Counted from the stretch's first letter, positions 472 through 39,625 are shown. The stretch: DNA of 64,000 bases from Candidatus Woesearchaeota archaeon UBA153 (GCA_002503705.1 DASH01000042.1:25950-89949), one strand, 5' to 3'. Made by a program: numbers and translations. The notes: a model not told the origin generated them from the sequence alone.

Positions 472-827
472 ACCCGGAGACCATCGAGCTTCTTTGGGAG
501 ACGATCGAGCAGGAACAGGACCTCTTGACCATCGTCGAGGGGAAGAACGACAAGCGCGCGCTCGAACGCCTCGGCTTCCGCAACATCAGAACCCTCGACC
601 GTCCGCTCTACCGGATCATCGAGGAGATTGACGGCGACGAGGTCGCGATTCTCACCGACCTGGACTCGCACGGCCAAGGGCTGTACAAGTATTTCTACCA
701 TGAATGCGCGCGCCGCGGCATCAAGGTGAACAACCGCGTGCGGCAACTCCTGCACTTCACCGACCTGCGCCAGATCGAAGGGCTGGCGAACTACCTGGAA
801 CGGCTCACGCCGATACAGACGCAGTAG
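468..827 (+). CDS. small Toprim-domain protein
   Basis: EGKNDKRAL ... ILTDLDSHG acidic Toprim motifs; 4-bp overlap with upstream gene. Confidence 0.5.
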   Translation: MNPETIELLWETIEQEQDLLTIVEGKNDKRALERLGFRNIRTLDRPLYRIIEEIDGDEVAILTDLDSHGQGLYKYFYHECARRGIKVNNRVRQLLHFTDLRQIEGLANYLERLTPIQTQ

Positions 828-896
828 TCATCGTCCACATTTCCCGCGGACATACGCTGCTCCAGAGCACGCTGTCGACCTTGCACGGCAGATTTC

Positions 897-3116
897 TCAG
901 AACGCCTTCTTCAGCTCCTCGAGGCGGCGCAGCGCCTCGTCGGCGGCGTAGCCGCCATTGCCGTACAATCGCGTCAGCTCGAGGAGCGCCAAGAATTTCG
1001 TGTTGCGCAAGAGGATGACGCGGACGGGGAAGGGGAGGCGCGCGTGCTTGATCGCGGTGACGAGCGCGTCGAACTCGAAACTCGCGGAGAGGCCGAACAT
1101 CGCCGCGTAGAGCGAGCGCAGCTTCCCTCGGGTCGCGTCGCGCAACGCCTCTTCCGGCACGCGTCCTCGCAACGAGCCGATCTCGTACTGCGCTTGCTTG
1201 ACGAGGTCGCCGTACTCTTCGTGACGGTGGACGCGGAAGTGCTTCGCGAACGAGTTCCACCCGAGGAGGAGCGAGTACGTGAGCGAGTCCTCATAGAAGA
1301 AGTGGATGGTCTTGCCGTGCGTGACGAGGAAGACGAGCCGCGACGCGTACACGGCGCGCGCCAAGTAGCCCGCGAAGAGCAAGACGAGGAGGAGCAGCGC
1401 GATGACGACCCCTTTGATGACGCCTGGCTTGTAGTCGCTCCACGCGCACGGCCTGCACGGTCCGTCGCAATCCACGAGCCGTTCCCCCTGGTTTTTCACG
1501 TTGTCGTTGCAGGTTGGGCATGCGTCGCAGGGTCCGCCGCAGTCTGTTTTCTCTTCTCCTTGGTTCTGTTCGCCGTCGTTGCAGGTTGGGCACGCGTCGC
1601 AGGGTCCGCCGCAGTCGACGCCGGTCTCTTTTCCGTTCTTCACGCCGTCCTCGCACGTCACGCCGACGCAGATGCCGCGGAGACACACGGCGCTCTCGCA
1701 CTCGCCGTTGTTCCGGCACCGCATCCCGTCGCCGCACGCCTCGCACACGCCGCCGCAATCGAGATCGCTCTCGTCCTGGTTCTTGACGCCGTCGTTGCAG
1801 GTTGGGCATGCGTCGCAGGGTCCGCCGCAGTCTGTTTTCTCTTCTCCTTGGTTCTGTTCGCCGTCGTTGCAGGTTGGGCACGCGTCGCAGGGTCCGCCGC
1901 AGTCGACGCCGGTCTCTTTTCCGTTCTTCACGCCGTCCTCGCACGTCGCGTCCGGCTCGCACGCCTGCATCGTCGCCGGCTTCTCCGTCTCGTTCGCGCA
2001 CGGAGTCAACGGTATGCAGACGCGTTCCTGATACCCGGGGAAGATGCACTCGCCCCAATCGGTGCAATCCCAACGCGGGACGCACGCTGGTTCGTCGCAC
2101 GCGCCGCAGTCCTTCGGGCAGGAAGCGCACTCTTCCGGCGCGATGCAGATCATGTCGCCGCAATAGTTGTTGCGGACGCCGACAACCGTCTCGTTCAGGA
2201 CCGTGTACTTGACGTTCCGGCTCGTGACGGTCGCGCCGCTCGAATCGGTCGCGGTGTACGCGTGATAGACGACGCCGGGCTCGCCCGCCTTCAGCGTGAA
2301 CAACTCTCCCTCGATGCTCGGCGTGACCGTTGCCCGAGTCATCTTCGTTTCCGGCCTCGGTCCCGTCTCCTCGAGCGTGAACGTCAAGACGCCACGGTCA
2401 GGGTCGAAGAAGTACAGGCTGAGGTTGAGCGTGAACGTCCCGCCGCGCGGCAGGGTGACGTCGATGAACTCCGTCACTTGGACTGGCGCCCGGTTGACAT
2501 TCGCGACGCTCACGTTCCACACGCGCACCGTCGTCAATCCTTCCCGGCTCGTCGCTCGCAGTTCGAGCGTGTGCAGGCCCCCCGCGTTGAAATCTGGATA
2601 ATACAGGTATGACTCGTTCTCCTTGGCGACGTCAACGCCGTCGAGGCGCCACGTGATTGTCGCGTTCTCTGTTTTCGCGGTGAAGAGGAACGGCCTCCCT
2701 TCTCGCGCGGTGACGACGCCGGGCGCGGGCGTCGTCGTCACAATCGGCGGGTGGCGGATCGCGTACTCCGCGACGCTCGTCGCGACGCACCCTCGCGGGG
2801 TGACCGCGTAGAAGAGGATTCTCGCGGTCGACGTCGTCGTTCCCGTCGGGGTGAACGTGAACGCTCCCGTCGTCTCGTCGAACGCGAAGCCCGGCACGCT
2901 GTCGCCGATGAACGTGGCGCCGAGCGTCGCGTCGCTCGTCGTCGTGAACGTGCCGTTCAGCGTGTGGTCGAGCCCGATAACGCTCGTCGCGGGTTCGAGC
3001 GCGATTTTCGGCGCGTCCGCCGGGCCGCAGTACGCGGTCGTCACGGTCGCGACGAGAAGTGTGACGAGGAGACTGAGAATCAGGACGTTGACACTCTTCC
3101 GCACGCGCACGCTCAC
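897..3116 (-). CDS. large type-I membrane surface protein: signal peptide, Ig-like region, about 6 cysteine-rich 28-aa repeats (C.DG..N..E...DCGGPC.AC), TM helix, cytoplasmic tail
   Basis: 739-aa ORF; N-terminal hydrophobic signal; repeated DCGGPCDACPTCNDG units; hydrophobic segment VVIALLLLVLLFAGYLA. Confidence 0.65.
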   Translation of the reverse strand: MSVRVRKSVNVLILSLLVTLLVATVTTAYCGPADAPKIALEPATSVIGLDHTLNGTFTTTSDATLGATFIGDSVPGFAFDETTGAFTFTPTGTTTSTARILFYAVTPRGCVATSVAEYAIRHPPIVTTTPAPGVVTAREGRPFLFTAKTENATITWRLDGVDVAKENESYLYYPDFNAGGLHTLELRATSREGLTTVRVWNVSVANVNRAPVQVTEFIDVTLPRGGTFTLNLSLYFFDPDRGVLTFTLEETGPRPETKMTRATVTPSIEGELFTLKAGEPGVVYHAYTATDSSGATVTSRNVKYTVLNETVVGVRNNYCGDMICIAPEECASCPKDCGACDEPACVPRWDCTDWGECIFPGYQERVCIPLTPCANETEKPATMQACEPDATCEDGVKNGKETGVDCGGPCDACPTCNDGEQNQGEEKTDCGGPCDACPTCNDGVKNQDESDLDCGGVCEACGDGMRCRNNGECESAVCLRGICVGVTCEDGVKNGKETGVDCGGPCDACPTCNDGEQNQGEEKTDCGGPCDACPTCNDNVKNQGERLVDCDGPCRPCAWSDYKPGVIKGVVIALLLLVLLFAGYLARAVYASRLVFLVTHGKTIHFFYEDSLTYSLLLGWNSFAKHFRVHRHEEYGDLVKQAQYEIGSLRGRVPEEALRDATRGKLRSLYAAMFGLSASFEFDALVTAIKHARLPFPVRVILLRNTKFLALLELTRLYGNGGYAADEALRRLEELKKAF
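1501..2090. repeat. near-identical tandem duplication (about 288-bp unit x2, with 84-bp sub-repeats) inside the cysteine-rich repeat gene
   Basis: ORF-track frames 1514-1786 and 1802-2212 begin with the identical 50 aa; frame 1501-2031 shows SLQVGHASQGPPQS repeated four times. Confidence 0.7.
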
Positions 3117-3220
3117 CTCACTAGCCCTCTCTGGAGCAGTCGTTATAAAAATGTGACGAACGGCTCCTCATCGTCGCAGCATTTCGTTCCCGTTTTTGTC
3201 TGGACGCAGTCCAGTCCCGT

Positions 3221-3305
3221 GCTGGCGCGGCAAAAGTCATAGTTGTTCTCAGTCGTACGGACGTACTCGCGAGAACTTTAACGAGAAAAACCGGGCCGCG
3301 CCAGC
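3221..3305. repeat. 85-bp intergenic palindromic element, copy A (GCTGGCGCGGC ... GCCGCGCCAGC), preceded by CTGGACGCAGTCCAG hairpin at 3200-3214
   Basis: Perfect 11-bp terminal inverted repeats; internal AAAAGTCATAGTT and ACGTACTCG motifs shared with copies at 7738, 57546, 61648. Confidence 0.6.
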
Positions 3306-3376
3306 CGAAACCCGCCGTGGCGGGCGTTCATCGTGCAAAGCATCAGTCGCGACCATCTCACCGATGCTCTTCGGCT

Positions 3377-3584
3377 CTTAGGCAAATCGCTTTCGCGTGG
3401 TCGCCAGCAGTTCGCGTCATCGCTTGTTGGACGGCGAGGGCTGCGTTCCCGTGGTCACGGCGACGGAACGTCGCCGGGAAGTTGGGGATGGTTCCCTCCC
3501 CAACTGGAGCGACCCCTCGCAACGCCCTCGCTTGCGGCTCTGCTGACGCTCGCCTGACGCTGGCGACCATCCATTTGCCTAAGA
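3377..3584. ncRNA. candidate structured RNA: nested 11-bp inverted repeats CTTAGGCAAAT/ATTTGCCTAAG and TGGTCGCCAGC/GCTGGCGACCA enclosing about 185 nt with internal hairpins
   Basis: Lies in 520-bp divergent intergenic region; only short, poorly coding-like ORFs overlap it. Confidence 0.2.
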
Positions 3585-3634: not shown

Positions 3635-4438
3635 ATGGTCGGCTTCGTCTACCATTTACGGCGTTACTTCTTCCTCGCGAAGGAAGAGTGGCTCGGCGTC
3701 CTCATCACCGCGCTGTTCGCGGGCTTCGCGCTCAGCTTCCGCAACTGGGGCGGCGAGACGTTCGACCTCCTCCTCGGCTTGAAGAATTACGGCATCGAGG
3801 TCGTCGCGTTCTTCCTCCTCTTCCTCCTCCACCTCTCCGCGCAGAAGGCGGTCGGCGTCTACTACGGCATCAAAGTCGTGTATGATAAGTACTTGCTCGG
3901 CCTCATGATCGGGTTGTTCGTCACCTTCCTCAGCTTCGGCTATTGGCCGTTGTTCGTGACCGGGACTCTCGCCTTCACCGCAATCCCGAACCTGCGCGTC
4001 GGCAAGTTCCGCGCGACGCTGCCGAAGAAATGGGAGATCGCCCTCATCGCCGCCGCCGGGCCGTTGGCCTCGTTGCTCGCCATGGTGCCGTTGAACGCGT
4101 TGCACATCGGGACTGGCTTGCCGTTCTTCCACCACTTAATCGGCGTCTGCGCGCTCATCGCGATCTACTCGATGCTGCCCATTCCCGTCTTGCCGACGGC
4201 GAACCCGTACGCCGTCTACATGAGCAGGATTGAGGTGTTGGAAGGCAACCTGCCCGGGTTCGACGTCTTCTACCACTCCGCCGGCATCTACTGCTTGCTC
4301 GTCGGGTTCCTCATCGTCTTCTCCGCGATCGCGTGGTTCTTCAGCCCGAGCACGTGGGCGTTGCTCATCGCGATCATTCTCGGCTGGTGGGCGATGCACT
4401 TGTACGCGAAGACGATCGCGGAACACCGGAACTGGTAG
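3635..4438 (+). CDS. polytopic integral membrane protein, function unknown
   Basis: 267 aa with about 7 hydrophobic helices. Confidence 0.5.
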   Translation: MVGFVYHLRRYFFLAKEEWLGVLITALFAGFALSFRNWGGETFDLLLGLKNYGIEVVAFFLLFLLHLSAQKAVGVYYGIKVVYDKYLLGLMIGLFVTFLSFGYWPLFVTGTLAFTAIPNLRVGKFRATLPKKWEIALIAAAGPLASLLAMVPLNALHIGTGLPFFHHLIGVCALIAIYSMLPIPVLPTANPYAVYMSRIEVLEGNLPGFDVFYHSAGIYCLLVGFLIVFSAIAWFFSPSTWALLIAIILGWWAMHLYAKTIAEHRNW

Positions 4439-4561
4439 TGTTGTGTCTTGAACGCTCTGCATTGTCGCCGTGTTCCCGCCCTTCAGTCTCACTCGTCGAG
4501 CCTTTCCCACGACACGTCGAGCGGCCGGTGACCGCGCGAAAGCGAATTCTCACAAAGCCCT

Positions 4562-4837
4562 TCAGACCAGGCTGTAGAGTCCTTTGAGTATGAGGTAGAC
4601 GCCGAGTATCACGCTCAAGAAGGTGATGTTCCAGAGGAGGGTGAGACACAGGTACCCCGCGATCAAGACGTCGAACTTGGAGACTGGGTCGCTGAGGAAG
4701 AGGAGCCCTTTCATGCCGAGGAAGAGCGCGACGAAGAGGACGATTTTCTGGGGCGCGAGGTGGAGGTTCGCCGTGAGTAAGAGTAACGCCGCGGTGAGGT
4801 CGACGAGGCCGAGGAGTTTGACGAGGAGGCTCACCAT
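4562..4837 (-). CDS. small membrane protein (about 3 TM)
   Basis: 91-aa hydrophobic ORF; AT-rich promoter region downstream (4840-4900). Confidence 0.35.
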   Translation of the reverse strand: MVSLLVKLLGLVDLTAALLLLTANLHLAPQKIVLFVALFLGMKGLLFLSDPVSKFDVLIAGYLCLTLLWNITFLSVILGVYLILKGLYSLV

Positions 4838-4933
4838 GCGCGGCAGTCGGACTTCTTATTTATTGGTTTGGCAAATATAATATTTACCATATGGAATTTA
4901 TTTCTTTTTCAGTTTCTCGTCGGTCACTCGTCG

Positions 4934-4949
4934 AAACATTTATAATTCC
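4934..4949 (+). promoter_or_regulatory. TATA-like box (GAAACATTTATAATTC)
   Basis: AT-rich box about 55 nt upstream of ATG at 5005. Confidence 0.35.
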
Positions 4950-5004
4950 CTATCGTCGGAGAGTGGTCTAACGCGTGGGGTGTCACGCTTCGAGGTGGAT
5001 TGAC

Positions 5005-5229
5005 ATGGCAGAGAAGGTTGCGAAAGTCGGCGTGAAACGCCAACCGGGCTTCCTGTATTTCATCGACAAAGAAGGCGACGTCAGCCGAGCCCCCATGGCT
5101 CGCGGCGGCGTCAAACGCGGCAAGGCCGAGAAGGTCGCGAAGGCCGGCGTCCGGAAGGAGAAGGGCTACCTCTACTTCCTCGACAAGCAAGGCGACGTCT
5201 CGCGCGCCAAGATGGCCCGCGGCCGCTAA
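5005..5229 (+). CDS. small protein made of two about 36-aa repeats (EKVAK.GV....G.LYF.DK.GDVSRA.MARG)
   Basis: Internal direct repeat visible in translation; start chosen at MAEKVAK. Confidence 0.4.
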   Translation: MAEKVAKVGVKRQPGFLYFIDKEGDVSRAPMARGGVKRGKAEKVAKAGVRKEKGYLYFLDKQGDVSRAKMARGR

Positions 5230-5426
5230 AGCTGCACGACAGTAAACGATTTTTGATTCTTCTTATTCTTCCTTCAATTATGTGACTCTCTCATGTGACT
5301 CTCTCATGGCTTGAGTCCGGGGAGGTTCATCGGCACGTACCGTTATAACCATCCTCTGAAAAGGACCAACGTTCAAGCAAAGAAATAAGCGCGTCCGACT
5401 GGGCGCGTTCCACTGGACATCCTCGG

Positions 5427-5441
5427 AAAACCATTATAAAC
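5427..5441 (+). promoter_or_regulatory. BRE/TATA (AAAACCATTATAAAC) for hef; near-leaderless
   Basis: About 22 nt upstream of ATG at 5463. Confidence 0.45.
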
Positions 5442-5462
5442 GTCCCGACCCTCGCAGTACTT

Positions 5463-7673
5463 ATGCTTCGTCCGTCTGTCGAGCCGCGGTTGTACCAGGA
5501 GACGATCTTCGCCACGGCCTCTTTGAAGAACACGTTGGTCGTCTTGCCGACGGGGATGGGGAAGACGTTGATTGCCGAACTGCTCACCGTCCACCGTCTC
5601 GAACACTACACGGGCAGTAAAGTCCTCATCCTCGCGCCGACACGACCATTAGTGCAGCAGCACAAGACGACGTTCAGGAAAGACCTCGCGCTCTCGGAAG
5701 AGGAGGCGGTCATGTTCACGGGGAACGTCTCGCCGGCGAAGCGCGCCGCGTTGTGGAAGAACGCGAAGATCATCTTCAGCACGCCGCAAGGCCTGGAGAA
5801 CGACCTCGTCGGCAGCAAGATCTCGCTGAAAGACGTCTCCTTGCTCGTCTTCGACGAAGCCCACCGGGCGACTGGCGATTACAGTTACGTCTTCATCGCG
5901 GACAGATACAAGAAGGAAGCGACGCACGAGCGTATCCTCGCGCTCACCGCGAGTCCGGGGAGCGACAAGGAGAGCATCGAGCAGGTCTGCAAAGTTCTCC
6001 ACATCGAGGAGATCGAGTCGCGTTCCGCGGAAAGTTCGGACGTCAAGCCGTACATCCAGGACATCGACGTCGAGTACCTCACCGTGCCGATGCCGGCTGA
6101 GTTCAAGGGGGCGCACGCCGCGTTCCAACGCTGCCTGAAGCGAAGATTGGACGATGTCGTCGAGCTCGGCGTCGTCAATCGGCAAGCGCTGCACAACAAG
6201 ACGTTGCTGCTGAAAGCGCAAGCCGGCTTGTACGCGCGCAGCGCGAAGGGCGAGAAGAGCTACGAGGCCTTGAAGACGATGTCGCTGCTCGCGGAGGCGT
6301 TGAAGCTCCAGCATGGCATCGAACTGTTGGAGACGCAAGGCGTCGCTTCGCTCGAGAAGTACTTGGGCAAGCTGCGCGCGGAGGCGACGGCGAAGCAGAG
6401 CAAGGCGGTGCAGAACCTCGTCGCTGACGTCGACTTCAAGGCGGGCGCGGCGCTCGTCGCGTCCTTGAAGGAGGCGAACGTCGAGCACCCGAAGCTGAAG
6501 GCGTTGCAGAAGGCGGTGCTCAGAACGCTGTACGCCGACAAGAATGCCAAGATCATCATCTTCAACCAGTACCGTGACCAGGCGGTGCGCATCAAGCAAG
6601 CGTTGGATGAAATTAATGTCTCTGCGAACATCTTCGTCGGCCAATTGAAGAAAGGCGAGACCGGGATGACCCAGCTGGAGCAGCACCGCATCCTCGAATC
6701 GTTCCGCGCGGGCGAGTTCAGCTGCCTCATCGCGACGAGCGTCGCGGAAGAAGGCCTGGACATCCCGAAGGTGGACGTCGTCCTCTTCTACGAGCCGGTG
6801 CCGAGCGCCATCAGGACGGTGCAGCGTCGGGGACGCACTGGCCGTTTGGAGAAAGGCAAGATCATCATGCTCATCACGGAAGGGACGCGCGACGTCGCGC
6901 ACAAGTGGGCCGCGCACCACAAGGAGAAACGCATGTACCGGGTCTTGAGCGAGGTGAAAGGCACGCTCTCCGGCGAGGGCGAGGAAGTTGAGGCGCAGAC
7001 GACGTTAAACGAAAATAACGAGGAGAACGCCGACGTCATCATCGCCGACCATCGCGAGAAGACGAGCGGCGTCCTCAAGGAGCTCATCGACATGAACGTG
7101 AAGATCGACTTGCGGCAGTTGGACGTCGGCGACTACCGGCTGAGCGACCGCGTCGTCGTCGAGTACAAACGAGTCCCGGACTTCGTCAACAGCATCGTCG
7201 ACGGCCGGTTGCTGCAGCAGTTGCGCGGCCTGCGCAGCTACCCGCGACCGTTGATCATCATCGAGGGGGACGAGGACATCTACAGCGTGCGCAACGTGCA
7301 CCAGAACGCGATCCTCGGCATGCTCGCCGCGATCACCGTCAGCTACAACATCCCGGTCTTGTTCACAAAGACGCCGAAAGAGACTGCGTCGTTGCTCGCG
7401 CTCATCGCGCGGAAGGAGCGCGAGCGCGGGAGCGCGGAGCCGAGCGCGCACACGCAGAAGCCGCTCACCGAGACGGAGCGCCAGGAGTTCATCATTTCCA
7501 GTCTGCCCGGCGTCGGCCCGAGCCTCGCGAAAGCCTTGTTGAAGGAGTTCGGCAGCGTCAAGGGGGTCGTGGACGCGAGCCCGGAGTCGTTGCAGCGCGT
7601 CGACAAGGTCGGCGAGAAGAAAGCCAAAGCGATCCACGACGCGGTGCGCAAGAAGTACGAGCCGAACGCGTAG
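5463..7673 (+). CDS. hef: Hef: SF2 helicase fused to ERCC4/XPF nuclease and HhH2
   Basis: PTGMGKT Walker A, DEAHR box, helicase C motifs QRRGRTGR; C-terminal ERCC4 (DVGDY...IIEGDE) and HhH LPGVGPSLAKALL. Confidence 0.85.
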   Translation: MLRPSVEPRLYQETIFATASLKNTLVVLPTGMGKTLIAELLTVHRLEHYTGSKVLILAPTRPLVQQHKTTFRKDLALSEEEAVMFTGNVSPAKRAALWKNAKIIFSTPQGLENDLVGSKISLKDVSLLVFDEAHRATGDYSYVFIADRYKKEATHERILALTASPGSDKESIEQVCKVLHIEEIESRSAESSDVKPYIQDIDVEYLTVPMPAEFKGAHAAFQRCLKRRLDDVVELGVVNRQALHNKTLLLKAQAGLYARSAKGEKSYEALKTMSLLAEALKLQHGIELLETQGVASLEKYLGKLRAEATAKQSKAVQNLVADVDFKAGAALVASLKEANVEHPKLKALQKAVLRTLYADKNAKIIIFNQYRDQAVRIKQALDEINVSANIFVGQLKKGETGMTQLEQHRILESFRAGEFSCLIATSVAEEGLDIPKVDVVLFYEPVPSAIRTVQRRGRTGRLEKGKIIMLITEGTRDVAHKWAAHHKEKRMYRVLSEVKGTLSGEGEEVEAQTTLNENNEENADVIIADHREKTSGVLKELIDMNVKIDLRQLDVGDYRLSDRVVVEYKRVPDFVNSIVDGRLLQQLRGLRSYPRPLIIIEGDEDIYSVRNVHQNAILGMLAAITVSYNIPVLFTKTPKETASLLALIARKERERGSAEPSAHTQKPLTETERQEFIISSLPGVGPSLAKALLKEFGSVKGVVDASPESLQRVDKVGEKKAKAIHDAVRKKYEPNA

Positions 7674-7737
7674 GGTTGCGCGTTGATGTTTGCTCGTCGT
7701 CAGACGAACGCGAGGCCGCTGCGTCAGCGGGTACGTC

Positions 7738-7822
7738 GCTGGCGCGGCAAAAGTTGTTGTCGTCGTGCGAAAACGTCGAGTACGGAGACGCGCGAAAACG
7801 AGTACTTCCGTGCCGCGCCAGC
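7738..7822. repeat. 85-bp intergenic palindromic element, copy D
   Basis: GCTGGCGCGGCAAAAGTT ... GTGCCGCGCCAGC between hef and primase. Confidence 0.6.
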
Positions 7823-7922
7823 ACGTTCGAGCACTGCTCGACTGGGCAATTGCGGAATCGACTGGACGGCGTCCAGCAGTATCGGCACAACACATAAAAG
7901 CTCTTCGGGGGTTCCTGGGAGG

Positions 7923-9539
7923 ATGGCGAAGCTCGCGATGGATGATCCGTTCTTCTTCGCGAAAGCGCTGCAGTGGTACAAGCGGCGCGACGTCGAAGAA
8001 GCAATCCTCGTGGCGTGCGAGTCGCGTGAGGTTTCGCCGCGGTACGGGCAGGGGTTCGGCAAGCGCCCCGACGCGTTGTTCTATCCCGCGGACGTGCTGA
8101 GCTTCGCGAAGCGGAAGGCGACGAGCTTCCACTGCAGCGAGGAGCGCTGGAGCGACCCGCTCAAGTTGAAGACTGGCGGTTCGCGGAAAGAGCTCGACGA
8201 CCTCCGCGCCGGCTGGGACTTGGTCCTCGACGTGGACTGCCCGTACTGGCTGTTCGCGAAGCTCACCGCGCACTTGTTCGTGCGCGCGTTGGAAGACCAC
8301 GGCATCAAGAGCGTGAGCGTCAAGTTCAGCGGCAGCAAGGGGTTCCACGTCGGCGTGCCGTGGGAAGCGTTCCCGGAACTGCACGGTGACGTCGAGACGC
8401 GGACGTTGTTTCCGGAAGCGCCGCGCGCCATCGCGAAGTACCTCGTCGACTACATCGCCTCGAACCTGATTACGGTGACGGCGAACACGATCGTCTTCGA
8501 CAAGACGCACAAGGTGAGTTATGAGAAATTGAAGGAGGTCACCGGCAAGGACTCGACCGGCCTCTTGAGCGAGTTCTGCAAGCGGTGCAAGACGCGCCAC
8601 GAGCGAGAAGAGCGCTCGAACCTCGCGGTCTTCCTGTGTGGGAGCTGCGGCCACTCGCGCAAGGCCGAACAGGCCGACTACCTCAAGTGCGAGCGGTGCA
8701 ACGGCGTCATGGAACCGCAACCCATCGTCGAATCAGGTCGGTGCGAGCGCTGCGGGAGCACCGAGTTCGAAAGCAAGTTCAACGTGCAGGCCCTCATCGA
8801 GGTCGACACGATCCTCCTCGCCTCGCGTCACTTGTTCCGCACCCCGTATTCGTTGCACGAAAAGAGCGGCCTCGTCAGCGTCGTCATCCCGACAACGAGC
8901 GTCATGACGTTCGAGAAGGAGGACGCGAAGCCGGAAAAAATCACGAGCTTCCCGCGATTCCTGGACGGCACGAAAGCGTCGCGAGCGGAAGGCGCGAAGC
9001 TCCTCGCCGCGGCGATGAGCCAGGCGGCGCTCGCCGAGCAGAAAGCGGAAGGCAAGCGCGAGTTCGCCGTGCCGGAAGAGGCGGTGCCGGAGGATTTGTT
9101 CCCGCCGTGCATGCAGGAGATGCTCACCGGGCTCACCGATGGGAAGAAGCGCGCGTTGTTCGCGCTCACCAACTTCTTCCGCACGTGCGGCTGGGGTCAT
9201 GAGCAGATGTCCGCGCGCCTCGAAGAGTGGAACAAGAAGAATCCGGAGCCGTTGCGCGAAGTCATCCTGAAAGGCCACCTGCGCTACCAGAAGACGCGCA
9301 AAGAGATCGTCCCGCCGCCGAACTGCAAGCGGTTCTACCAAGACTTCGGCGTCTGCCACCCCGACCAGTTCTGCGGCCGCATCAAGAACCCGGCGCAGTA
9401 CGCCAAGTTCAAGGCGGAACTCTTGAGCGCGGAGAAACCCATCGACAAACCGCGCGTGACGCTCACCGACGAGCAGAAAGCGATGCGGAAGGCGTACCGG
9501 GAGAAGAAGAAGCAGGAGAAAGAACCGTCGAATCCTTAA
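7923..9539 (+). CDS. priSL: compact DNA primase fusing PriS catalytic (AEP) domain and PriL Fe-S C-terminal domain
   Basis: GGAGG then ATG at 7923; LVLDVDC and FSGSKGFHV AEP motifs; Cys-rich zinc region; C-terminal FPPCMQ and additional Cys (PriL-CTD Fe-S hallmark). Confidence 0.7.
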   Translation: MAKLAMDDPFFFAKALQWYKRRDVEEAILVACESREVSPRYGQGFGKRPDALFYPADVLSFAKRKATSFHCSEERWSDPLKLKTGGSRKELDDLRAGWDLVLDVDCPYWLFAKLTAHLFVRALEDHGIKSVSVKFSGSKGFHVGVPWEAFPELHGDVETRTLFPEAPRAIAKYLVDYIASNLITVTANTIVFDKTHKVSYEKLKEVTGKDSTGLLSEFCKRCKTRHEREERSNLAVFLCGSCGHSRKAEQADYLKCERCNGVMEPQPIVESGRCERCGSTEFESKFNVQALIEVDTILLASRHLFRTPYSLHEKSGLVSVVIPTTSVMTFEKEDAKPEKITSFPRFLDGTKASRAEGAKLLAAAMSQAALAEQKAEGKREFAVPEEAVPEDLFPPCMQEMLTGLTDGKKRALFALTNFFRTCGWGHEQMSARLEEWNKKNPEPLREVILKGHLRYQKTRKEIVPPPNCKRFYQDFGVCHPDQFCGRIKNPAQYAKFKAELLSAEKPIDKPRVTLTDEQKAMRKAYREKKKQEKEPSNP

Positions 9540-9597: not shown

Positions 9598-10155
9598 AGA
9601 CTCGCTCCGGTGTGCCGCGAGCTGCAGCACCAGAAGCAAGTCATCTTGGAGACTTCGGCTGCGGTGTTGAAAGAAAAGAAAGCCTCGGTCGCGTTCACCG
9701 TCGGCACGATGATCGAAGTGCCCCGCGCGGCGCTCACCGCCGACGAGATCGCCGCGGAGGCGGCGTTTTTCAGCTTCGGGACAAATGATTTGACGCAGAT
9801 GACGATGGGATTGTCGCGCGACGACGCCGGCAAGTTCATCCCGAGCTACCTGAAAGAAGGCCTGTTCGAGTACGACCCGTTCCAGCACCTCGACGCGACT
9901 GGCGTCGGCCAGCTCGTCACGATGGCCGTGCAGAAAGGTCGCAGCGTCAAGAAAGACCTGAAAGTCGGCATCTGCGGCGACCCGGCAAGCATCACGTTCT
10001 GCCACGCCGCCGGCCTGGACTACGTCTCGTGCAGCCCGTACCGCGTGCCGATCGCGCGCTTGGCGGCTGCGCACGCGGCAATCAACGCGAGAGTGAAGAA
10101 GTCACATTTTTTATCGTTTTTTCCGGAATCATTTTCCGATATGTCGGATGATTAA
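9598..10155 (+). pseudogene. C-terminal 185-aa remnant of pyruvate phosphate dikinase / PEP-utilising enzyme
   Basis: [10 protein letters not shown] and ICGDPAS motifs of PPDK C-terminal TIM barrel; frame opens immediately after a stop at 9595; missing the about 700-aa N-terminus; overlaps next gene by 74 bp. Confidence 0.5.
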
Positions 10156-12546: not shown

Positions 12547-13524
12547 ATGAAACTCGCGGTGTTCGATGCGAAGAAGGCGCGTACCGGTGACGTCGACCTC
12601 CCGGTCCAGTTCAGCGAGCCGGTCAGGAGCGACTTGATCAAGCGCGCCGTCCACGCCCTTCAAGCGGGCCAGCGCCAGCCGTACGGGAGCGACCCGCGCG
12701 CGGGCAAGCGTTCAAGCTCGAAGGTCTCGCGTCGCCGCCGCAACTACCGCGGCAGTTACGGTCAAGGCATCAGCCGCGTCCCGCGCAAAGTCCTCAACCG
12801 TCGCGGCACGCGCATGTACTTCGTCGGCGCGTTCGCCCCCGGCACGGTCGGCGGCCGTCGCGCGCACCCTCCGAAGGCCGAGAAGGTCTGGGAGGAGAAG
12901 ATCAACGACCGCGAGCGGCGGAAAGCCATCCGGAGCGCGCTCGCGGCCACCGTCGCGAGAGAGCTCGTCACGAAGCGCGGCCACCTCGTCCCGGAAGCGT
13001 ACCCGTTCGCGCTCGACGACTCGTTCGAGCGGCTCGCGAAGACGAAGGAGGTGAAGGCGGCGCTTCGCGCCCTCGGCTTCGAGCAGGAGATGGCGCGCGC
13101 GTCTGTCGTCAACATCAAGGCGGGCAAGGCGTCGATGCGCGGTCGCAAGCGCAAGAAGCCCGTCAGCCTCCTCCTCGTGACCTCGTCGCGTGACGCGAAG
13201 CTCGCGCTCGCCGCGGCGAACCTGCCTGGTTTGACGATCGTTCCTGTCGACGTGCTCAACGCGGAACTCTTGGCGCCGGGCACGCATGCGGGTCGCGCGA
13301 CGCTCTTCACGAATGGCGCGCTCGCGAGAATCGCGAACGAAGGGCTGTATACGGATCATGTCGTCTCGCCCGTCGCGGCGACGGCGAAAGCGACGCCGGT
13401 CAAGGCGGAGAAGAAGAGCGCGGCGAACGCGACGAAAGAGCGCGCGGCGAAAGCCGTTCCCGCGGTGAAGTTGAAAGCGGCTTCCGCTCCGAAACCGAAG
13501 ACGGTGAAGGGTGAGTCGCAATGA
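12547..13524 (+). CDS. rpl4: ribosomal protein uL4 with about 70-aa Lys/Ala-rich C-terminal extension
   Basis: Operon position; L4 family; tail AKATPVKAEKKSAANATKERAAKA. Confidence 0.85.
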   Translation: MKLAVFDAKKARTGDVDLPVQFSEPVRSDLIKRAVHALQAGQRQPYGSDPRAGKRSSSKVSRRRRNYRGSYGQGISRVPRKVLNRRGTRMYFVGAFAPGTVGGRRAHPPKAEKVWEEKINDRERRKAIRSALAATVARELVTKRGHLVPEAYPFALDDSFERLAKTKEVKAALRALGFEQEMARASVVNIKAGKASMRGRKRKKPVSLLLVTSSRDAKLALAAANLPGLTIVPVDVLNAELLAPGTHAGRATLFTNGALARIANEGLYTDHVVSPVAATAKATPVKAEKKSAANATKERAAKAVPAVKLKAASAPKPKTVKGESQ

Positions 13525-13781
13525 ACGACGGCGCGATCATCAAGCACCCGATCAGCTCGGAAAAGACGATTAAGATCATCGAGACGGAGAACTCGCTCGT
13601 CTTCGCCGTCGCGCGCGACGCGACAAAAGCGGCCATCAAGGCCGAGGTGGAGAAATTGTTCGGCGCGAAGGTCGTGAAGGTCCGGACATTGATCCTCCCG
13701 AGCGCGACGAAGCGCGCGGTCGTCCAGTTCAGTCCGGAGACGCCGGCGATCGACGTCGCGACGAAGCTCGGTTTGATGTAA
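13521..13781 (+). CDS. rpl23: ribosomal protein uL23
   Basis: 86 aa; operon position; overlaps rpl4 stop. Confidence 0.85.
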   Translation: MNDGAIIKHPISSEKTIKIIETENSLVFAVARDATKAAIKAEVEKLFGAKVVKVRTLILPSATKRAVVQFSPETPAIDVATKLGLM

Positions 13782-13803
13782 CTATCACAGTCACGGTGCA
13801 ACC

Positions 13804-14505
13804 ATGGGTAAAAATTTAATTCAACAGCGGCGCGGCAAAGGTTCGGTCACGTACCGGCGTCACACGCTCTCCGCGCCCGGCATGGCGCGCGTCGAGAACA
13901 GAGGCGGCGCCACCATCCTCGCGCTCCTCCACTCGCGGTTCCACACCGCGCCGTTGGCGCGCGTCGAGTACGAGGACGGCGCTCCCGGACTCATCATCGC
14001 GCCGGAAGGCGTGCGCGTCGGCCAGCGCGTCCTCATCAGCAGCGACGCCCCCCTCGCGACCGGCAACACGCTCCCCTTGAAGAGCCTCCCGGAAGGGAGC
14101 CTCGTCTATAATATCGAAGCCCAGCCGGGCGACGGCGGCACGTTCGTCCGCGCCTCAGGCGGCGTCGGTCGCATCGTCGGCAAGACGGGCGAGGGCGTCA
14201 TCATCCAGCTCCCGAGCAAGAAGCGCCGCTTGTTCAATCCTGAGTGCAAGGCGACGCTCGGCATCGTCGCGGGCGGCGGCCGCCCGGAGAAACCGTTCCT
14301 CAAGGCGGGCATCAAGTTCCACCGCGTCAAGGCGCGGCACAAGTACTGGCCGATCGTTTCGGGCGCCGCGATGAACGCGGTCGACCACCCGTTCGGCGGC
14401 AAGCGCACCAGCAGGAAAGGCCGGCCGACGATTGCGCCGAAGAACGCGCCGCCGGGCCGCAAGGTCGGCATGATCAGGCCGCGCCACACGGGCCGGAACA
14501 AGTAG
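13804..14505 (+). CDS. rpl2: ribosomal protein uL2
   Basis: GKNLIQQRRGKGS start and HPFGGK motif. Confidence 0.9.
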   Translation: MGKNLIQQRRGKGSVTYRRHTLSAPGMARVENRGGATILALLHSRFHTAPLARVEYEDGAPGLIIAPEGVRVGQRVLISSDAPLATGNTLPLKSLPEGSLVYNIEAQPGDGGTFVRASGGVGRIVGKTGEGVIIQLPSKKRRLFNPECKATLGIVAGGGRPEKPFLKAGIKFHRVKARHKYWPIVSGAAMNAVDHPFGGKRTSRKGRPTIAPKNAPPGRKVGMIRPRHTGRNK

Positions 14506-14569
14506 GGTTCACTGTCGGCGTCAATGTAGGCTTCAAGGTTCAATGCAGGGTTCAACGGAGTGATGATCA

Positions 14570-15019
14570 ATGGCACGCAAAGAGTTCACCTATCGGGGAC
14601 GGACGGCTGACGAGCTGAAGGCGATGAGCCTCGACGAGTTCGCCCTCCTCATGCCGAGCCGCGAACGGCGCAAGGTGAAGCGCGGCTTCACGACTGCGGA
14701 GAAGAGCTTGCTGAAGAAGCTCGCCAAGCGCGACCGCGTCAAGACGCACGCGCGCGAGATGATCGTGCTTCCCAGCATGTTCGGCAAGACCATCCTCGTG
14801 CACAACGGGAAAGAGTACGCCCCTGTCCTGATCAACCCTGAGATGGTCTCGCACCGCCTCGGGATGTTCGCGCTCACGCGCAAGCTCGTCCGCCACTCCG
14901 CGGCCGGCGTCTCGTCGGCGAAAGCGGGCAGCGGCGGCGACTCTGGCAAGTCCGCTTCCGCGGCCAAGCCCGCGGCCGGAGGGGCAGCGCCCGCGAAGGG
15001 CGCCGAGAAGAAGAAGTAA
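14570..15019 (+). CDS. rps19: ribosomal protein uS19 with Ala/Gly/Lys-rich C-terminal tail
   Basis: FTYRGRT...HNGKEY S19 family; operon position. Confidence 0.85.
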   Translation: MARKEFTYRGRTADELKAMSLDEFALLMPSRERRKVKRGFTTAEKSLLKKLAKRDRVKTHAREMIVLPSMFGKTILVHNGKEYAPVLINPEMVSHRLGMFALTRKLVRHSAAGVSSAKAGSGGDSGKSASAAKPAAGGAAPAKGAEKKK

Positions 15020-15047
15020 GTGAGCTGAAAAAAGCACCATCAAAAAC

Positions 15048-15758
15048 GTGAACACTGTGGCCGGATACGCATTCACCAAGTACGACAGCGCCACCATGGC
15101 ACGCGCCGCCGCGCGCGACGCTCCGATCAGCGTCAAGACGAGCGTGGAGATCGCGAAGTGGCTCCGCGGCGCGATGAGCGACAAGGCTGAGCGTTCACTC
15201 AAAGAGGTCATCGCGCTCCGCCGCGCGGTCCCGTTCACGAGAGCGTGCGACCACGTCGGTCACCGTCGCGGCCACCTCGGCCCTGGCAAATATCCCGTCA
15301 AGGCCGCCAGCGTGTTCCTCGCGCTCCTCACGCAGTGCGTGGCGAACGCGGAGAGTAAAGGCCTCGGCACGCCCCTGAAGATCGTTCACCTCGCTGCCCA
15401 GCAAGCGGCGACGCCCGCGCACTATGGGCGCCAGCGCGGCCTCGTGATGAAGCGCGCGCACGTCGAACTCGTCCTCGCCGAGACTGAGGAGAGCAAGCGT
15501 CGCGAGAAGCGCGAGAAGCGCGTGAAGAAAGAGGGAAAGAAGGATTCGGAGAAGAAGGATGCGAAACCGGTCGTCGAGGAGAAACCGCCGGTGAAGGCCG
15601 ACGTGAACGTCAAGGAGACGACGATGCCGAACGAGGAGAAGACTCCGGTCGCGTCGCAACCCGTTGCGGCGAAGCCCGTCACGGCCAAGCCCGCGACTCC
15701 GAAACCGAAAGCCGAATCATTGAAGAAAGCAGAGAAGAAGCCGGAGCCGAAACAATAA
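15048..15758 (+). CDS. rpl22: ribosomal protein uL22 with about 90-aa Lys/Glu/Pro-rich C-terminal extension
   Basis: L22 core plus low-complexity tail KREKREKRVKKEGKKDSEKKDAKP. Confidence 0.8.
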   Translation: MNTVAGYAFTKYDSATMARAAARDAPISVKTSVEIAKWLRGAMSDKAERSLKEVIALRRAVPFTRACDHVGHRRGHLGPGKYPVKAASVFLALLTQCVANAESKGLGTPLKIVHLAAQQAATPAHYGRQRGLVMKRAHVELVLAETEESKRREKREKRVKKEGKKDSEKKDAKPVVEEKPPVKADVNVKETTMPNEEKTPVASQPVAAKPVTAKPATPKPKAESLKKAEKKPEPKQ

Positions 15759-15790
15759 CGGCGCTGAAACAATAAGGATGTGACTGCAGC

Positions 15791-16831
15791 ATGGCGATTG
15801 AGCGGAAATTCGTGGCCCAGAACGTCAAGGAGTTCCGAATCAAACAGTACGTTGGTGAACAGCTCAGCAGGGTCGGCTTGAGCAGCATCAAGCTGCAGCG
15901 AACGCCGCTCGGCGACAAGATCCTCATCCGCGCCTCCCGGCCCGGCCTCGTCGTCGGCCGCGCGGGCAGCAATATCCAGAAGCTCACTGAGGCGTTGAAG
16001 ACCGAGTTCAACCTCGAGAACCCTCAGATTGAAATCGAGGAAGTGCAGAACTTCGCGCTCGACGCGAACATCATCGCGGAGATGATCGCCAACTCGCTCG
16101 AGCGCTTCGGCAGCGCGCGCTTCAAGGGCGTCGGCCACAAGGCCTTGCAGGACGTCATGAACGCGGGCGCGATGGGCGTCGAGATACTCCTGAGCGGCAA
16201 GATTCCCAGCCAGCGCGCGAAGACGTGGCGCTTCTATCAGGGCTACCTGAAGAAGTGCGGTGATGTCGCCGTCGTCTGGGTGGATGTCGCGTACAAGACC
16301 GCGGTCCTCAAGACCGGTGTCGTCGGCATCAAGGTGTCGATCATGCCGCCGGACACGAAACTCCCCGACACGATCCTCGTCAAGCAGCCCGACCCCGCCA
16401 CGCTTGAAGAGGTGACGGGTGCGGAAGCGGCGCTCCTCGAGACTGGGGTGCAAGAAGGCCTCGATGGCCTCGAAGGCGTGGATGGCGTGGAAGGTTCGGC
16501 AGAGACTGGCGCCGGAGAGGCGAAAGGGAAGGCCCGCCGTAAGCAAGGCGGCGCTGACTCGGATGAGAAGAAGTCGCGCGCTCCGCGCAAGAAGAGAGAG
16601 GCGAAGACGGGCGAAAAGAAAGACGAGAAGAAAGATGACCTGAAGAAAGATGACGCGAAGAAAGCTGAAAACAAGGGCGAGAAACAGGAAGTGAGCGACG
16701 AGGTCGCTGAGGATGTTGCTGCCGCCGCTGGTGCCTCGGTGCCGAGCGCGCCGACGGGCGACGCCGAACCTGACGCTCAAGAACCTGACGCTCAAGAACC
16801 TGAACTCAGCGTTCAGAAAACCGAGAACTGA
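15791..16831 (+). CDS. rps3: ribosomal protein uS3 with about 130-aa acidic/basic low-complexity C-terminal extension
   Basis: KH domain and S3-C region; tail with EPDAQEPDAQEPE repeats. Confidence 0.85.
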   Translation: MAIERKFVAQNVKEFRIKQYVGEQLSRVGLSSIKLQRTPLGDKILIRASRPGLVVGRAGSNIQKLTEALKTEFNLENPQIEIEEVQNFALDANIIAEMIANSLERFGSARFKGVGHKALQDVMNAGAMGVEILLSGKIPSQRAKTWRFYQGYLKKCGDVAVVWVDVAYKTAVLKTGVVGIKVSIMPPDTKLPDTILVKQPDPATLEEVTGAEAALLETGVQEGLDGLEGVDGVEGSAETGAGEAKGKARRKQGGADSDEKKSRAPRKKREAKTGEKKDEKKDDLKKDDAKKAENKGEKQEVSDEVAEDVAAAAGASVPSAPTGDAEPDAQEPDAQEPELSVQKTEN

Positions 16832-17498: not shown

Positions 17499-17855
17499 AT
17501 GATGGCAGCCAAGAAAGCAAGTGAAACGCGCGCGAAAACCGCGACAGCGAGCGCGCAGACCGGGACTGCGCCCCGCGCTCCGAACGTTGCGGGCGCTCGG
17601 TACACGACGCACGGGCGCACGTTCACTGGTACGGTGACGAGCGACCGGATGTACCGGACGGTGACGGTCGCGTGGGAGCGCCGCCACTTCGTCCCGAAGT
17701 ACCAGCGGTACGAGCGCCGGTACAGCAAGGTGAAAGCGCACAATCCTGTCGAGATTGACGCGAAGGTCGGCGACCTCGTCACCATCAAGGAGACGCGGCC
17801 GATCAGCAAGACGAAGAACTTCATCGTCATCAAGAAGCATGAGCGCGCGCAATGA
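17499..17855 (+). CDS. rps17: ribosomal protein uS17
   Basis: S17 family; operon position. Confidence 0.85.
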   Translation: MMAAKKASETRAKTATASAQTGTAPRAPNVAGARYTTHGRTFTGTVTSDRMYRTVTVAWERRHFVPKYQRYERRYSKVKAHNPVEIDAKVGDLVTIKETRPISKTKNFIVIKKHERAQ

Positions 17856-17902
17856 TGTCAGCGTAGGGCAGTGTAGACGCAAAATTCCCTGTGTGAAACA
17901 AG

Positions 17903-24135: not shown

Positions 24136-24669
24136 ATGCCTGAAGCGAAAACGAGTACGAAGTCGACGGTGAAATCCACCGTGACGGCGAGCAGAACGCA
24201 GGGCGGCGCGACAGTTGCGCGCAGCGCTCCGAAAGCTGCTGCCAAACCGAGCGTTCCACGAACTGTTGTCGCGCCTCAAGCCCCCAGCGCCGAGAATGCC
24301 GGTCTCATCGCGGCGGTCCGCGTCCGCGGCGAAGAGGGCATCAAGACGGAGATCCGACTCGCGCTCCAATGCCTGCGCCTCCAACGCTCGAACGTCTGCG
24401 TCCTCATCCCTGACACGAAGCTCTGGCGTGGGCAACTGCGCAAGTGCAAAGACTACATCACGTACGGCTTGATCACGAACGAGACGAAACAATTGCTTGA
24501 AGAGAAGCGCGGCGTCAAGAAAGCCGACGGCACGCTCAAGCCGTTCTACCGTCTCAACCCGCCCCGTCACGGCTTCGGCCGGAAAGGCGTGAAGAAGGCG
24601 TTCACCGAAGGTGGCGCGCTCGGTGAGCGCGGCGCGAAGATGGACGACCTCATCCGGCGGATGGTCTGA
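24136..24669 (+). CDS. rpl30: ribosomal protein uL30
   Basis: IAAVRVRGEEGIKTEIRLALQCLRLQRSNVCVL L30 ferredoxin-like signature. Confidence 0.8.
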   Translation: MPEAKTSTKSTVKSTVTASRTQGGATVARSAPKAAAKPSVPRTVVAPQAPSAENAGLIAAVRVRGEEGIKTEIRLALQCLRLQRSNVCVLIPDTKLWRGQLRKCKDYITYGLITNETKQLLEEKRGVKKADGTLKPFYRLNPPRHGFGRKGVKKAFTEGGALGERGAKMDDLIRRMV

Positions 24670-24685
24670 ACATGAGGGATGCTCA

Positions 24686-25180
24686 ATGAGTCTCAAACGA
24701 CGCAAGAAGAACACCCGCCAGCGCGGCAGCACGTCGCACGGTTGGGGCGCGATGAAGAAGCACCGCGGCGCCGGCCACCGAGGCGGCCGCGGCAACGCGG
24801 GCTCCGGAAAGAGAGGCGACGCGAAGAAGCCTTCCTATTGGAAGATTAAGAACTTCTCCGGCAAGCACGGGTTCACGTCGAAACGGCCCGCGGTCGGCTT
24901 CGTCATGAACGCGGGGCACTTGTCGAGCATGATCGACACGCTCGTCACGCAAGGCCTCGCCGAGAAGAGCGGGAAGGGGTACGCGGTCGACCTCGAGAAA
25001 TTGCGCATCGAGCGGTTGCTCGGCGGCGGCATCGTCAACGTCGCGATGGACGTGACGGTCGAACGCGCGTCGCCCTCAGCGATCGAGAAGATCGAGAAGG
25101 CGGGCGGCAAAGTCACCGTGACGGCGGAACCGGAAGCGGAAAGCGACGACGCAGAAGCGCCCGTGGCTGACGAAGCGTAA
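24686..25180 (+). CDS. rpl15: ribosomal protein uL15
   Basis: Gly/Arg-rich N-terminus KHRGAGHRGGRGNAG typical of L15; start chosen at MSLKRRKK. Confidence 0.8.
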   Translation: MSLKRRKKNTRQRGSTSHGWGAMKKHRGAGHRGGRGNAGSGKRGDAKKPSYWKIKNFSGKHGFTSKRPAVGFVMNAGHLSSMIDTLVTQGLAEKSGKGYAVDLEKLRIERLLGGGIVNVAMDVTVERASPSAIEKIEKAGGKVTVTAEPEAESDDAEAPVADEA

Positions 25181-25225: not shown

Positions 25226-25395
25226 CGTTGGTGTGCTCTCTCGCTGCTGGGCGCGTGTTGAGCATCTTCGAAACGCTCGATGCGAGTGTCGCAGGTCCTG
25301 CGTCCCCGGAGGGGGCGTCCCCCCGCGACGGACTCGTCGTCGTTTCCGAGGGCGTTTCGACTTGAGGATGCTCAACACGGAGTCGGGGTTAGGGT

Positions 25396-34943: not shown

Positions 34944-35064
34944 CGGCGGGTTCTCGCTGGCGCGGCACGGATTTCCTCGTCCGTGTGCGTCGCGTTCTCG
35001 TGCGACTTCGCACTTTGACTATGACTCTTTGCCGCGCCAGCACGGGACTGCGCTACGCGCGCAG

Positions 35065-36390: not shown

Positions 36391-36402
36391 TTTATATATA
36401 AA
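36391..36402 (+). promoter_or_regulatory. TATA box (TTTATATATAAA) for surface-protein gene cluster
   Basis: About 20 nt upstream of ATG 36422. Confidence 0.5.
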
Positions 36403-36421
36403 TCTTTGTGGGGTGAGAGGT

Positions 36422-39619: not shown

Positions 39620-39625
39620 CTACTC

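Follow-up and report, generated by a model that had tools for sequence, protein, structure and literature searches.

A family of intergenic palindromic elements with flanking mini-hairpins in a Woesearchaeota-like archaeon

The window considered here is the whole 64,000-nt stretch GCA_002503705.1 DASH01000042.1:25950-89949, of approximately 60% G+C, the intergenic part of which (about 13%) carries a family of short palindromic elements. The host is, judged from its sequence, a Woesearchaeota-like DPANN archaeon with a small genome of 60% GC; the closest named relatives of its Hef protein are found in metagenome-assembled genomes (MAGs) of Candidatus Woesearchaeota and Nanoarchaeota, with at most 68% identity. 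Each element has a core, an imperfect hairpin of 82–89 nt (144 nt in one copy, c5) bounded by 11-bp inverted repeats, GCTGGCGCGGC on the left and GCCGCGCCAGC on the right, and nearly every copy has a short GC hairpin on both sides. Five copies (c1–c5) are present in the window, all in intergenic DNA, as the first-pass annotation had stated. The four copies listed there exist at the positions given, but a fifth full copy on the minus strand (c4, 34956–35041) had been overlooked. The long copy, given there as 61648–61811, exists too, but its core is 61668–61811, and 61648–61662 is a flanking hairpin.

The copies occupy different types of spacers. The c1 core (85 nt, 3221–3305, plus strand) belongs to a spacer of divergent genes; its 11-bp terminal inverted repeats are perfect, and it is framed by the mini-hairpins CTGGAC-GCA-GTCCAG (3200–3214, 6 nt from the core) and CCCGC-CGTG-GCGGG (3311–3324, followed by CGTTC). 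The c2 core (85 nt, 7738–7822, plus strand) is located between hef and a fused primase gene and has the same direction as both. Its mini-hairpins are CCGCTG-CGT-CAGCGG (7716–7730) and TCGAGC-ACT-GCTCGA (7827–7841), and an additional mini-hairpin of the CTGGAC type, CTGGACGGCGTCCAG, is found 40 nt to the right of c2 (7862–7876). The primase gene is one open reading frame (ORF) of 538 aa at 7923–9539, with matches to the families of the small (PF01896) and of the large (PF04104) primase subunit, i.e., a PriS-PriL fusion. The c4 core (86 nt, 34956–35041, minus strand) is situated between genes for an aRF1-like protein and an rRNA methyltransferase, again in the same direction as both. In element orientation, its left mini-hairpin is CTGCGC-GCGTA-GCGCAG (35048–35064), with a spacer, TCCCGT, common to c1, and its right one is CCCGCC-NNN-GGCGGG (34936–34950), a type found also on the right of c1. 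The c3 core (88 nt, 57546–57633, plus strand) starts 1 nt past a stop codon in a convergent region beside a tRNA-splicing endonuclease gene. A single C-to-T change in the right 11-mer of c3 gives a G.T pair, and its right mini-hairpin is CGAGC-CAT-GCTCG (57640–57652). The c5 core (144 nt, 61668–61811, minus strand) lies between the histone gene and purF, in the same direction as both. In element orientation it has CCCGTC-GTCA-GACGGG on the left (61817–61832) and a CTGGAC-type hairpin on the right (61648–61662), identical in sequence to that at 3200; two substitutions are present in its right 11-mer, and the core contains extra ACGAGAA-like motifs, as seen in long copies.

The 11-bp inverted-repeat ends reported by the first-pass annotation are far above chance. 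Exact GCTGGCGCGGC occurs eight times in the window (both strands) against 0.20 expected, none of 100 dinucleotide-preserving shuffles reaches eight, and all eight occurrences are element termini; with up to one mismatch, there are 16 matches against 4.5 expected. The right-end motif ACGAG-N5-CCGKGCCGCGCCAGC is found six times against 0.5 expected, five of the six being inside elements. A profile built from the copies matches exactly five loci in the window and none besides, the four short copies with nhmmer E values between 1e-18 and 1e-22 and c5 as two partial matches. Chance similarity of GC-rich inverted repeats could be proposed on the ground that the bare 11-mer pair does arise in high-GC bacteria, where the loose pattern GCTGGCGCGGC-N{50,80}-GCCGCGCCAGC gave at least 114 single chance matches on genome contigs; none of these bacterial loci, however, has an nhmmer match to the element profile. 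In viral contigs, the right-end pattern has no match and the left-end pattern nine chance matches, with no full element. An assembly artefact is equally hard to maintain, as the same sequence as that of the window is present in ENA ERZ27315072 and ERZ27315071, Logan SRR5037086 and JGI 3300001580, and the same copies recur across these independent assemblies. Chance or artefact is thus refuted by the 11-mer excess, the full-length alignment among copies, the independent assemblies and the specificity of the profile, and its probability is practically negligible.

Further copies exist outside the window, and the alignment among copies holds for approximately 14 nt inside each 11-mer; these are the two points on which the first-pass annotation had staked the family. 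The sequence of the organism searched amounts to about 100 kb (the window and the contigs L125, L126, and L128), or about 10% of the genome. L126 (13.4 kb) and L128 (14.4 kb) were reached via orthologues of proteins of JGI Ga0172379, a lineage related to the window organism (88% identity in a PUA protein, 82% in a tRNA methyltransferase, and 82–84% in DNA). A sixth copy, c6, is located beyond the window end, past purF (L125:790–877), and provides a Dus gene with its final eight codons and its stop. L126 has two canonical and two decayed copies, and L128 has no canonical copy, which gives eight canonical copies in about 99 kb of the window organism, or approximately 80 per Mb. Four additional copies were found with the specific two-ended pattern in three short Ga0172379 contigs (one each in L119 and L120, two in L121). 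The intergenic repeat family is therefore real and larger than first noted. It is absent from two relatives with 66–67% identical Hef (GCA_014874255.1 and GCA_028279755.1; loci L122–L124), and by this sequence comparison it is lineage-specific. One of these relatives, GCA_014874255.1 (64% GC), has unrelated intergenic repeat modules of its own, e.g., CTCAGTCGCTCTCYGAGCTCCTGATCCT and CATGCTCGCCGCCGTCAATCGYGCCAAGGCGACGA, at L122 positions 7640–7740, 8741–8783, 9740–9900, and 17660–17860, in unusually long spacers of 250–490 nt.

Approximately 25 nt are conserved at each end of the core, and the middle is variable yet self-complementary. The termini GCTGGCGCGGC and GCCGCGCCAGC are perfect in three of the five window copies and have at most two changes in the other two. 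GCTGGCGCGGCAAAAGTCATAGT is the sequence of the left end and ACGAG-N5-CCGKGCCGCGCCAGC that of the right. About 14 nt of subterminal sequence on each side are conserved without being complementary to each other, which gives the element a polarity: nhmmer scores are 62–75 bits forward versus 5–21 bits reverse. The plus strand carries c1, c2, and c3, and the minus strand c4 and c5. Among the first 10 copies, the left end has no substitution in 110 positions and the right end five in 110; over 12 copies, the left 11-mer has two substitutions, one in each canonical L126 copy. The interiors are 55–82% identical between paralogues, and the long copy c5 is only 40–45% identical to the others. Two internal motifs had been described as shared, and of these AAAAGTYATAGTT is general to the family but ACGTACTCG is confined to a subfamily made of c1, c3, and the first element of L121 (L121A).

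The hairpin CTGGACGCAGTCCAG, noted earlier in front of two copies, does occur at both 3200 and 61648, a variant of it being found at 7862, and turns out to be one instance of a general rule. Perfect GC-rich hairpins of 5–6 bp, with a 3–5 nt loop and at 4–7 nt from the core, occupy 15 of 20 flanks within 25 nt of the core, against a background of 6.3% per 25-mer (binomial P = 1.2e-14). They are not a general property of intergenic DNA, since short GC hairpins occur at 3.2 per kb in intergenic and 4.4 per kb in coding sequence. Their stems belong to at least seven sequence types (CTGGAC, CCCGCC, CCGGGC, CGAGC, CCGCGC, CCCGAC/CCCGTC, and CCGCTG), and one stem type may be found on either side of the core; pairing is kept despite the differing sequences. 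An origin of the copies by insertion into a pre-existing palindrome is rejected, the left and right flanks not being complementary to each other. Some right hairpins are followed by no more than a loose CGTYC. The composite of about 125–135 nt folds as three independent hairpins and can fill a whole spacer, such as the 121-nt spacer at c4 and the 119-nt spacer at c3.

Each core folds as one long hairpin on both strands, about equally well, with z scores of −2.6 to −6.5 for the window copies. The covariation analysis suggested in the first-pass annotation gave a consensus structure over 11 copies in which 93% of cells are paired; the covariation score of 0.156 compares with 0.093 in shuffles and is not reached in any of 500, and three interior pairs are changed on both sides. 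Neither folding energies nor G.T versus A.C changes show a clear strand bias that would tell RNA from DNA; of the six terminal-stem substitutions, four yield G.U on the forward strand, and four versus two is not significant. No Rfam family matches the elements at gathering thresholds, and at E ≤ 5 three unrelated weak matches appear, none on an element. ARAGORN detects no tRNA anywhere in the 64 kb. When the cores were read directly, RUGAUGA/CUGA boxes and a CUGAUGA core were lacking, and no ANA box lay consistently 3′ of the stem. A tRNA-like cloverleaf, hammerhead, C/D and H/ACA RNAs, K-turn, bulge-helix-bulge, and retron msr/msd were rejected, their boxes or geometry being absent on reading. 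A different long hairpin of about 125 nt (25255–25382) occupies the spacer between the last ribosomal-protein gene (24611–25180) and secY; it has arms GTTGAGCATC.../...GATGCTCAAC with GC mini-hairpins inside, a folding energy of −71.9 kcal/mol (z −5.9), and no Rfam match.

Orthologous sites in the two lineages permit the conservation of whole elements to be compared with that of their surroundings. L121 and L126 are collinear over 1331 nt with 84% identity, and both elements of this region (A and B) are at the same positions. Core A is identical at 87 of 89 positions (98%), together with 32 identical flanking nucleotides that include the right hairpin, and core B at 76 of 86 (88%). For the two flanking coding sequences identity is 86–87%, for fourfold-degenerate sites 72% (98/136), and for other intergenic DNA 25–70%, with indels. 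Tested against the fourfold-site rate, the excess of conservation has P = 1e-10 in core A and P = 2e-4 in core B. Comparison of the sequences shows the termini and at least two whole cores to be under purifying selection in place. At a third comparable locus, the Ga0172379 lineage has a canonical copy (L120) and the window organism a rearranged one (L128:4445–4572). Here the arms are swapped, GCCGCGCCAG being followed by 49 nt that hold two mini-hairpins, GCTGGCGCGG, and then a truncated left-end copy that extends as far as the next gene's stop codon; the site looks like the junction of two tandem elements stripped of their outer halves. The two decayed copies in L126 indicate that not all copies are maintained. 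One of them (L126:12440–12577), about 100 nt upstream of a tRNA gene read by eye at 12683–12760, retains an intact left end with a CCGGGC-type hairpin nearest the tRNA and has a degenerate right end. The picture as a whole is that of an old, largely stable family that undergoes some turnover.

Copies are found between genes of every relative orientation. Four loci lie between genes of the same direction (c2, c4, c5, and L126B/L121B), and all four elements are oriented with the genes. Four are in convergent regions (c3, c6, L126A/L121A, and L120), and four in divergent promoter regions (c1, L119, and L126 near 9.2 and 12.5 kb, the last two decayed). The L119 copy is upstream of both TATA-like boxes. 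Copies c3 and c6 abut or overlap stop codons, and no TATA-like promoter is seen upstream of elements in the flanks read.

Some copies coincide with changes of gene order. A block of 4.4 kb (3635–7673), from a 267-aa gene through genes of 91 and 74 aa to hef, is flanked by c1 and c2 and is inverted relative to an orthologous surface-protein gene (707/739 aa) in comparison with both relatives (L122, L123), in which hef precedes the surface-protein gene and not the primase gene. Two other assemblies of the population join window position 3373, 67 nt from c1, to another neighbor: in the ENA and Logan contigs (L116:1–178, L117:1–28), the reverse complement of 3373–3550 is joined to the region upstream of an M24 peptidase gene, which precedes window position 1, and ENA contig k141_553375 starts at window position 3447. 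Either part of the population carries the interval from about −740 to 3372, with c1 in it, in inverted form, or one of the assemblies contains a mis-join. The elements are thus located at rearrangement or assembly breakpoints, which does not prove that they cause rearrangements. A 739-aa ORF without a Pfam hit (897–3116, minus strand), in which ENA contigs also break, includes a 218-nt direct repeat (1445–1662 and 1733–1950, 90% identical) that encodes repeated Cys-rich CGGPCxxCPxCxDGxxNQxE modules.

Signs of recent mobility were searched for as well. The flanks of 10 copies have no direct repeat of 2 nt or more at the core boundary, near-identical paralogues are lacking (interiors at most 82% identical), and no transposase family appears among the Pfam hits for the genes of the window, L125, L126, and L128. 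Two of the three orthologous loci keep their copy, and the third is rearranged, not empty. The cores have the size and non-coding character of MITEs (miniature inverted-repeat transposable elements), as they measure 82–144 nt and are intergenic or overlap only the last eight codons of a gene. The MITE-like reading of the first-pass annotation nevertheless fails in the strict sense, because there is no target-site duplication (TSD), no evidence of recent transposition such as near-identical copies, and, in about 100 kb, no parent insertion sequence (IS) or transposase found, and orthologous copies are retained.

Some further features of the window concern other genes. The region 12547–16831 encodes unusually long ribosomal proteins (L4, 325 aa; L22, 236 aa; S3, 346 aa) and is rich in GAAGAA-type repeats of Lys/Glu codons. 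Five large ORFs in a row at 35714–43377 (635, 643, 424, 422, and 327 aa) have no Pfam match. A RelA_SpoT-domain gene (55689–56771, minus strand) is in itself notable in a DPANN archaeon; upstream of it, palindromes containing GCATGC are clustered at 56806–56909, with arms at 56806–56831 and 56884–56909 and a 9-bp hairpin at 56867–56889, and on sequence grounds this cluster could be an operator-like site. A 398-aa protein with the helix-turn-helix domain Sigma70_r4 (PF04545), here in an archaeal genome, is encoded across the window end (63503–64000 and L125:6855–8051).

With moderate confidence, the elements are interpreted as a non-autonomous, non-coding family of extragenic palindromes, similar to REP (repetitive extragenic palindromic) elements, their hairpin-forming doublets (REPINs) and bacterial interspersed mosaic elements (BIMEs), which spread via a single-strand hairpin, has its 11-mer read by a protein, and is retained as punctuation between genes. 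The unit consists of a mini-hairpin, a spacer of 4–7 nt, the core of 82–89 nt, another spacer, and a second mini-hairpin, and the core of the 11-bp terminal stem, asymmetric conserved subterminal loops, and the variable self-complementary interior. Past spread would have passed through a hairpin-forming single-stranded intermediate, as in REP and RAYT (REP-associated tyrosine transposase) systems and in IS200/IS605-type transposition, which leave no duplication. The nearly invariant 11-mer may be the recognition site of a putative sequence-specific protein. Retained copies would now act as structured punctuation between genes, preserved by the host for that function, either as 3′-end or intercistronic stem-loops of transcripts, if co-transcribed, or as extruded DNA hairpins.

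Several observations count against this interpretation. The GTAG/CGTC tags of REPs are absent here, and conservation in REPs concerns the short palindrome, whereas in the present family it concerns the non-palindromic 11-mer next to mini-hairpins that vary. A transcript-only role does not fit all copies, because some lie in divergent promoter regions. Pfam detects no Y1/HUH or DDE transposase in the approximately 100 kb of the organism, and there is no clean pair of filled and empty sites, so that past mobility is deduced from dispersal alone. The adjacent 3′ part of the PUA gene is likewise highly identical (0.90–0.95), and recombination between the two lineages might have left a tract that accounts for the strong conservation of core A.

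Three other explanations have to be weighed against the REP-like interpretation. The elements may be paralogous small structured RNAs or cis-acting RNA modules, with ends for processing or protein binding and a locus-specific interior carrying specificity, an unlikely explanation. It agrees with interiors that differ among paralogues and are conserved among orthologues, with oriented and asymmetric subterminal motifs, with the covarying flank hairpins, and with the 4/4 copies between same-direction genes that point with the genes, although four are too few, just as the G.U excess on the forward strand is too small. It is opposed by the absence of a TATA-like promoter from the flanks read, the start of c3 only 1 nt past a stop codon, the similar folding of both strands, the lack of Rfam matches even at E ≤ 5 and of C/D boxes, ACA box or K-turn on direct reading, and the existence of decayed copies. 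Moreover, what is conserved does not differ from copy to copy, and the variable part is simply self-complementary, the opposite of a guide RNA. The options offered by the first-pass annotation are thus supported in part: a structured element under selection gains support because of orthologue conservation and covarying flank hairpins, but independent small-RNA genes lose it, given that no promoter is seen in the flanks read, the strands fold alike, and stop codons are abutted or overlapped. Transcription terminators and insulators, proposed there as well, are candidate functions.

Somewhat less probable again is that the elements, as double-stranded or extruded DNA, are sites of a protein with sequence specificity, for example a recombinase that uses attC-like folded sites, a chromosome-architecture or insulator protein, or a topoisomerase (compare IHF and gyrase at BIMEs). 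The conservation of the left 11-mer beyond the needs of pairing fits such sites, as do the attC-like architecture over 82–144 nt, the copies at synteny breakpoints including those around the inverted block 3635–7673, the disagreement of assemblies of one population 67 nt from c1, the swapped arms at the L128 locus, and the copies in divergent promoter regions outside any obvious transcript. The assembly disagreement may, however, be an artefact; DNA binding does not explain the conservation of the whole interior of core A; attC core sites are absent, the copies are kilobases apart among housekeeping genes in mixed orientation and not in cassette arrays, and about 100 kb yielded no integrase or recombinase. 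Least probable of the three is a classical MITE, i.e., an internally deleted IS derivative moved in trans by a DDE transposase through its 11-bp ends by cut-and-paste. Perfect 11-bp terminal inverted repeats (TIRs), the small size, dispersed intergenic copies, size variants of 82–144 nt with decayed copies, a locus that differs between lineages (canonical in L120, scrambled in L128), copies abutting or overlapping gene ends (c3, c6), the inversion of the block flanked by c1 and c2 relative to relatives, and the high MITE density reported for a Woesearchaea genome (PMC11602168) all speak for it. Against it stand 0/10 copies with a TSD, interiors of paralogues never more than 82% identical despite nearly invariant termini, orthologous copies retained and conserved above the neutral rate, and the lack of a transposase in about 100 kb; in addition, the flanks are structured and homologous between copies, and so the unit extends past the inverted repeats.

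A bolder form of the REP-like interpretation is that a resident replicator of the REPIN-like kind has here its first counterpart in archaea; equally, the family could be a novel class of structured modules conserved between genes of DPANN archaea. This reading, in either form, is itself unlikely. The triple-hairpin unit would carry the invariant 11-mer for reading by a putative dedicated single-copy protein, a Y1/HUH enzyme or something new, and copies with locus-specific interiors would be kept by selection for shaping transcript ends or chromosome structure in a genome poor in other regulatory DNA. If true, either would merit more attention. REP/REPIN-type elements have so far been described from bacteria only. 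In tiny DPANN genomes each retained non-coding base calls for explanation. Here a repeat family fills whole spacers, its 11-mer is almost unchanged as interiors drift, and two loci are conserved as well as or better than neighboring protein genes, which makes it a candidate for a long-lived resident element or a new archaeal cis-acting structural signal. The elements also mark synteny and assembly breakpoints and are relevant to the building of DPANN MAGs. If this is an ordinary decayed repeat family, its value lies mainly in annotation.

Among known systems, prokaryotic MITEs, such as Correia/NEMIS (Neisseria miniature insertion sequences) of Neisseria, ERIC/IRU (enterobacterial repetitive intergenic consensus/intergenic repeat units) of enterobacteria, and those of Sulfolobus and Haloquadratum, are likewise short, non-coding, intergenic and dispersed, with TIRs and hairpins. 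They reach high density in reduced genomes including those of DPANN archaea (PMC11602168, PMC10969869). An automated census gives the highest archaeal MITE densities in DPANN genomes, with 105 per Mb in a Woesearchaea genome; its detection is based on TIRs and TSDs, and the architecture of the present family is not described in it (PMC11602168). Unlike MITEs, the present elements have no TSD and no related IS in about 100 kb, their copies are old and diverged, their ends are selectively maintained, and conserved hairpin modules are present outside the inverted repeats. Integron attC sites (e.g., Vibrio cholerae repeats, 57–141 nt) are also imperfect palindromes of similar length that form species-specific families, in which the ends are conserved, asymmetric bases are left unpaired, and the center varies yet remains self-complementary. 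Their R″/R′ core sites RYYYAAC/GTTRRRY are absent here, the termini being GCTGG.../...CCAGC, and no IntI was found in about 100 kb; the copies, in mixed orientation, are separated by 4–27 kb and have ribosomal, replication, and tRNA-synthetase genes around them, with no promoterless cassettes as in attC arrays. Palindrome-associated transposable elements (PATEs) derived from IS200/IS605 were rejected too, because the flank hairpins have at least seven stem sequences that are not conserved and the core has inverted repeats.

REPINs exist in tens to hundreds of copies, are vertically inherited, and are mobilized or maintained by a RAYT of the Y1/HUH type (bioRxiv 10.1101/2021.07.10.451892; PMC3733652); they are stated to be “not detected in archaea” (bioRxiv 10.1101/2021.07.10.451892). 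The present elements share with REPINs and BIMEs the form of an extragenic palindrome of about 100 nt, with two inverted conserved ends around a variable spacer and a long hairpin, as well as the absence of a TSD, persistence at orthologous sites, and mosaics with other short palindromic modules. They differ from REPINs in that no RAYT was found here in about 100 kb and the paralogues are far more diverged than a REPIN population around its master sequence.

Rickettsia palindromic elements (RPEs) are ancient palindromic repeats of 100–150 nt in a reduced genome, kept at orthologous positions. These bacterial elements are often inserted in frame inside genes and sometimes contribute codons to them, to which the last eight codons and stop supplied by c6 to the Dus gene may be compared. 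They have no sequence relation to the present elements, and flanking mini-hairpins are not known to be part of their architecture. Bacterial REP/REPIN doublets, BIME mosaics, and RPEs appear nearest in kind to the present family. The composite of three hairpins, the covariation of the flank hairpins, and the conservation at orthologous sites are the new points here.

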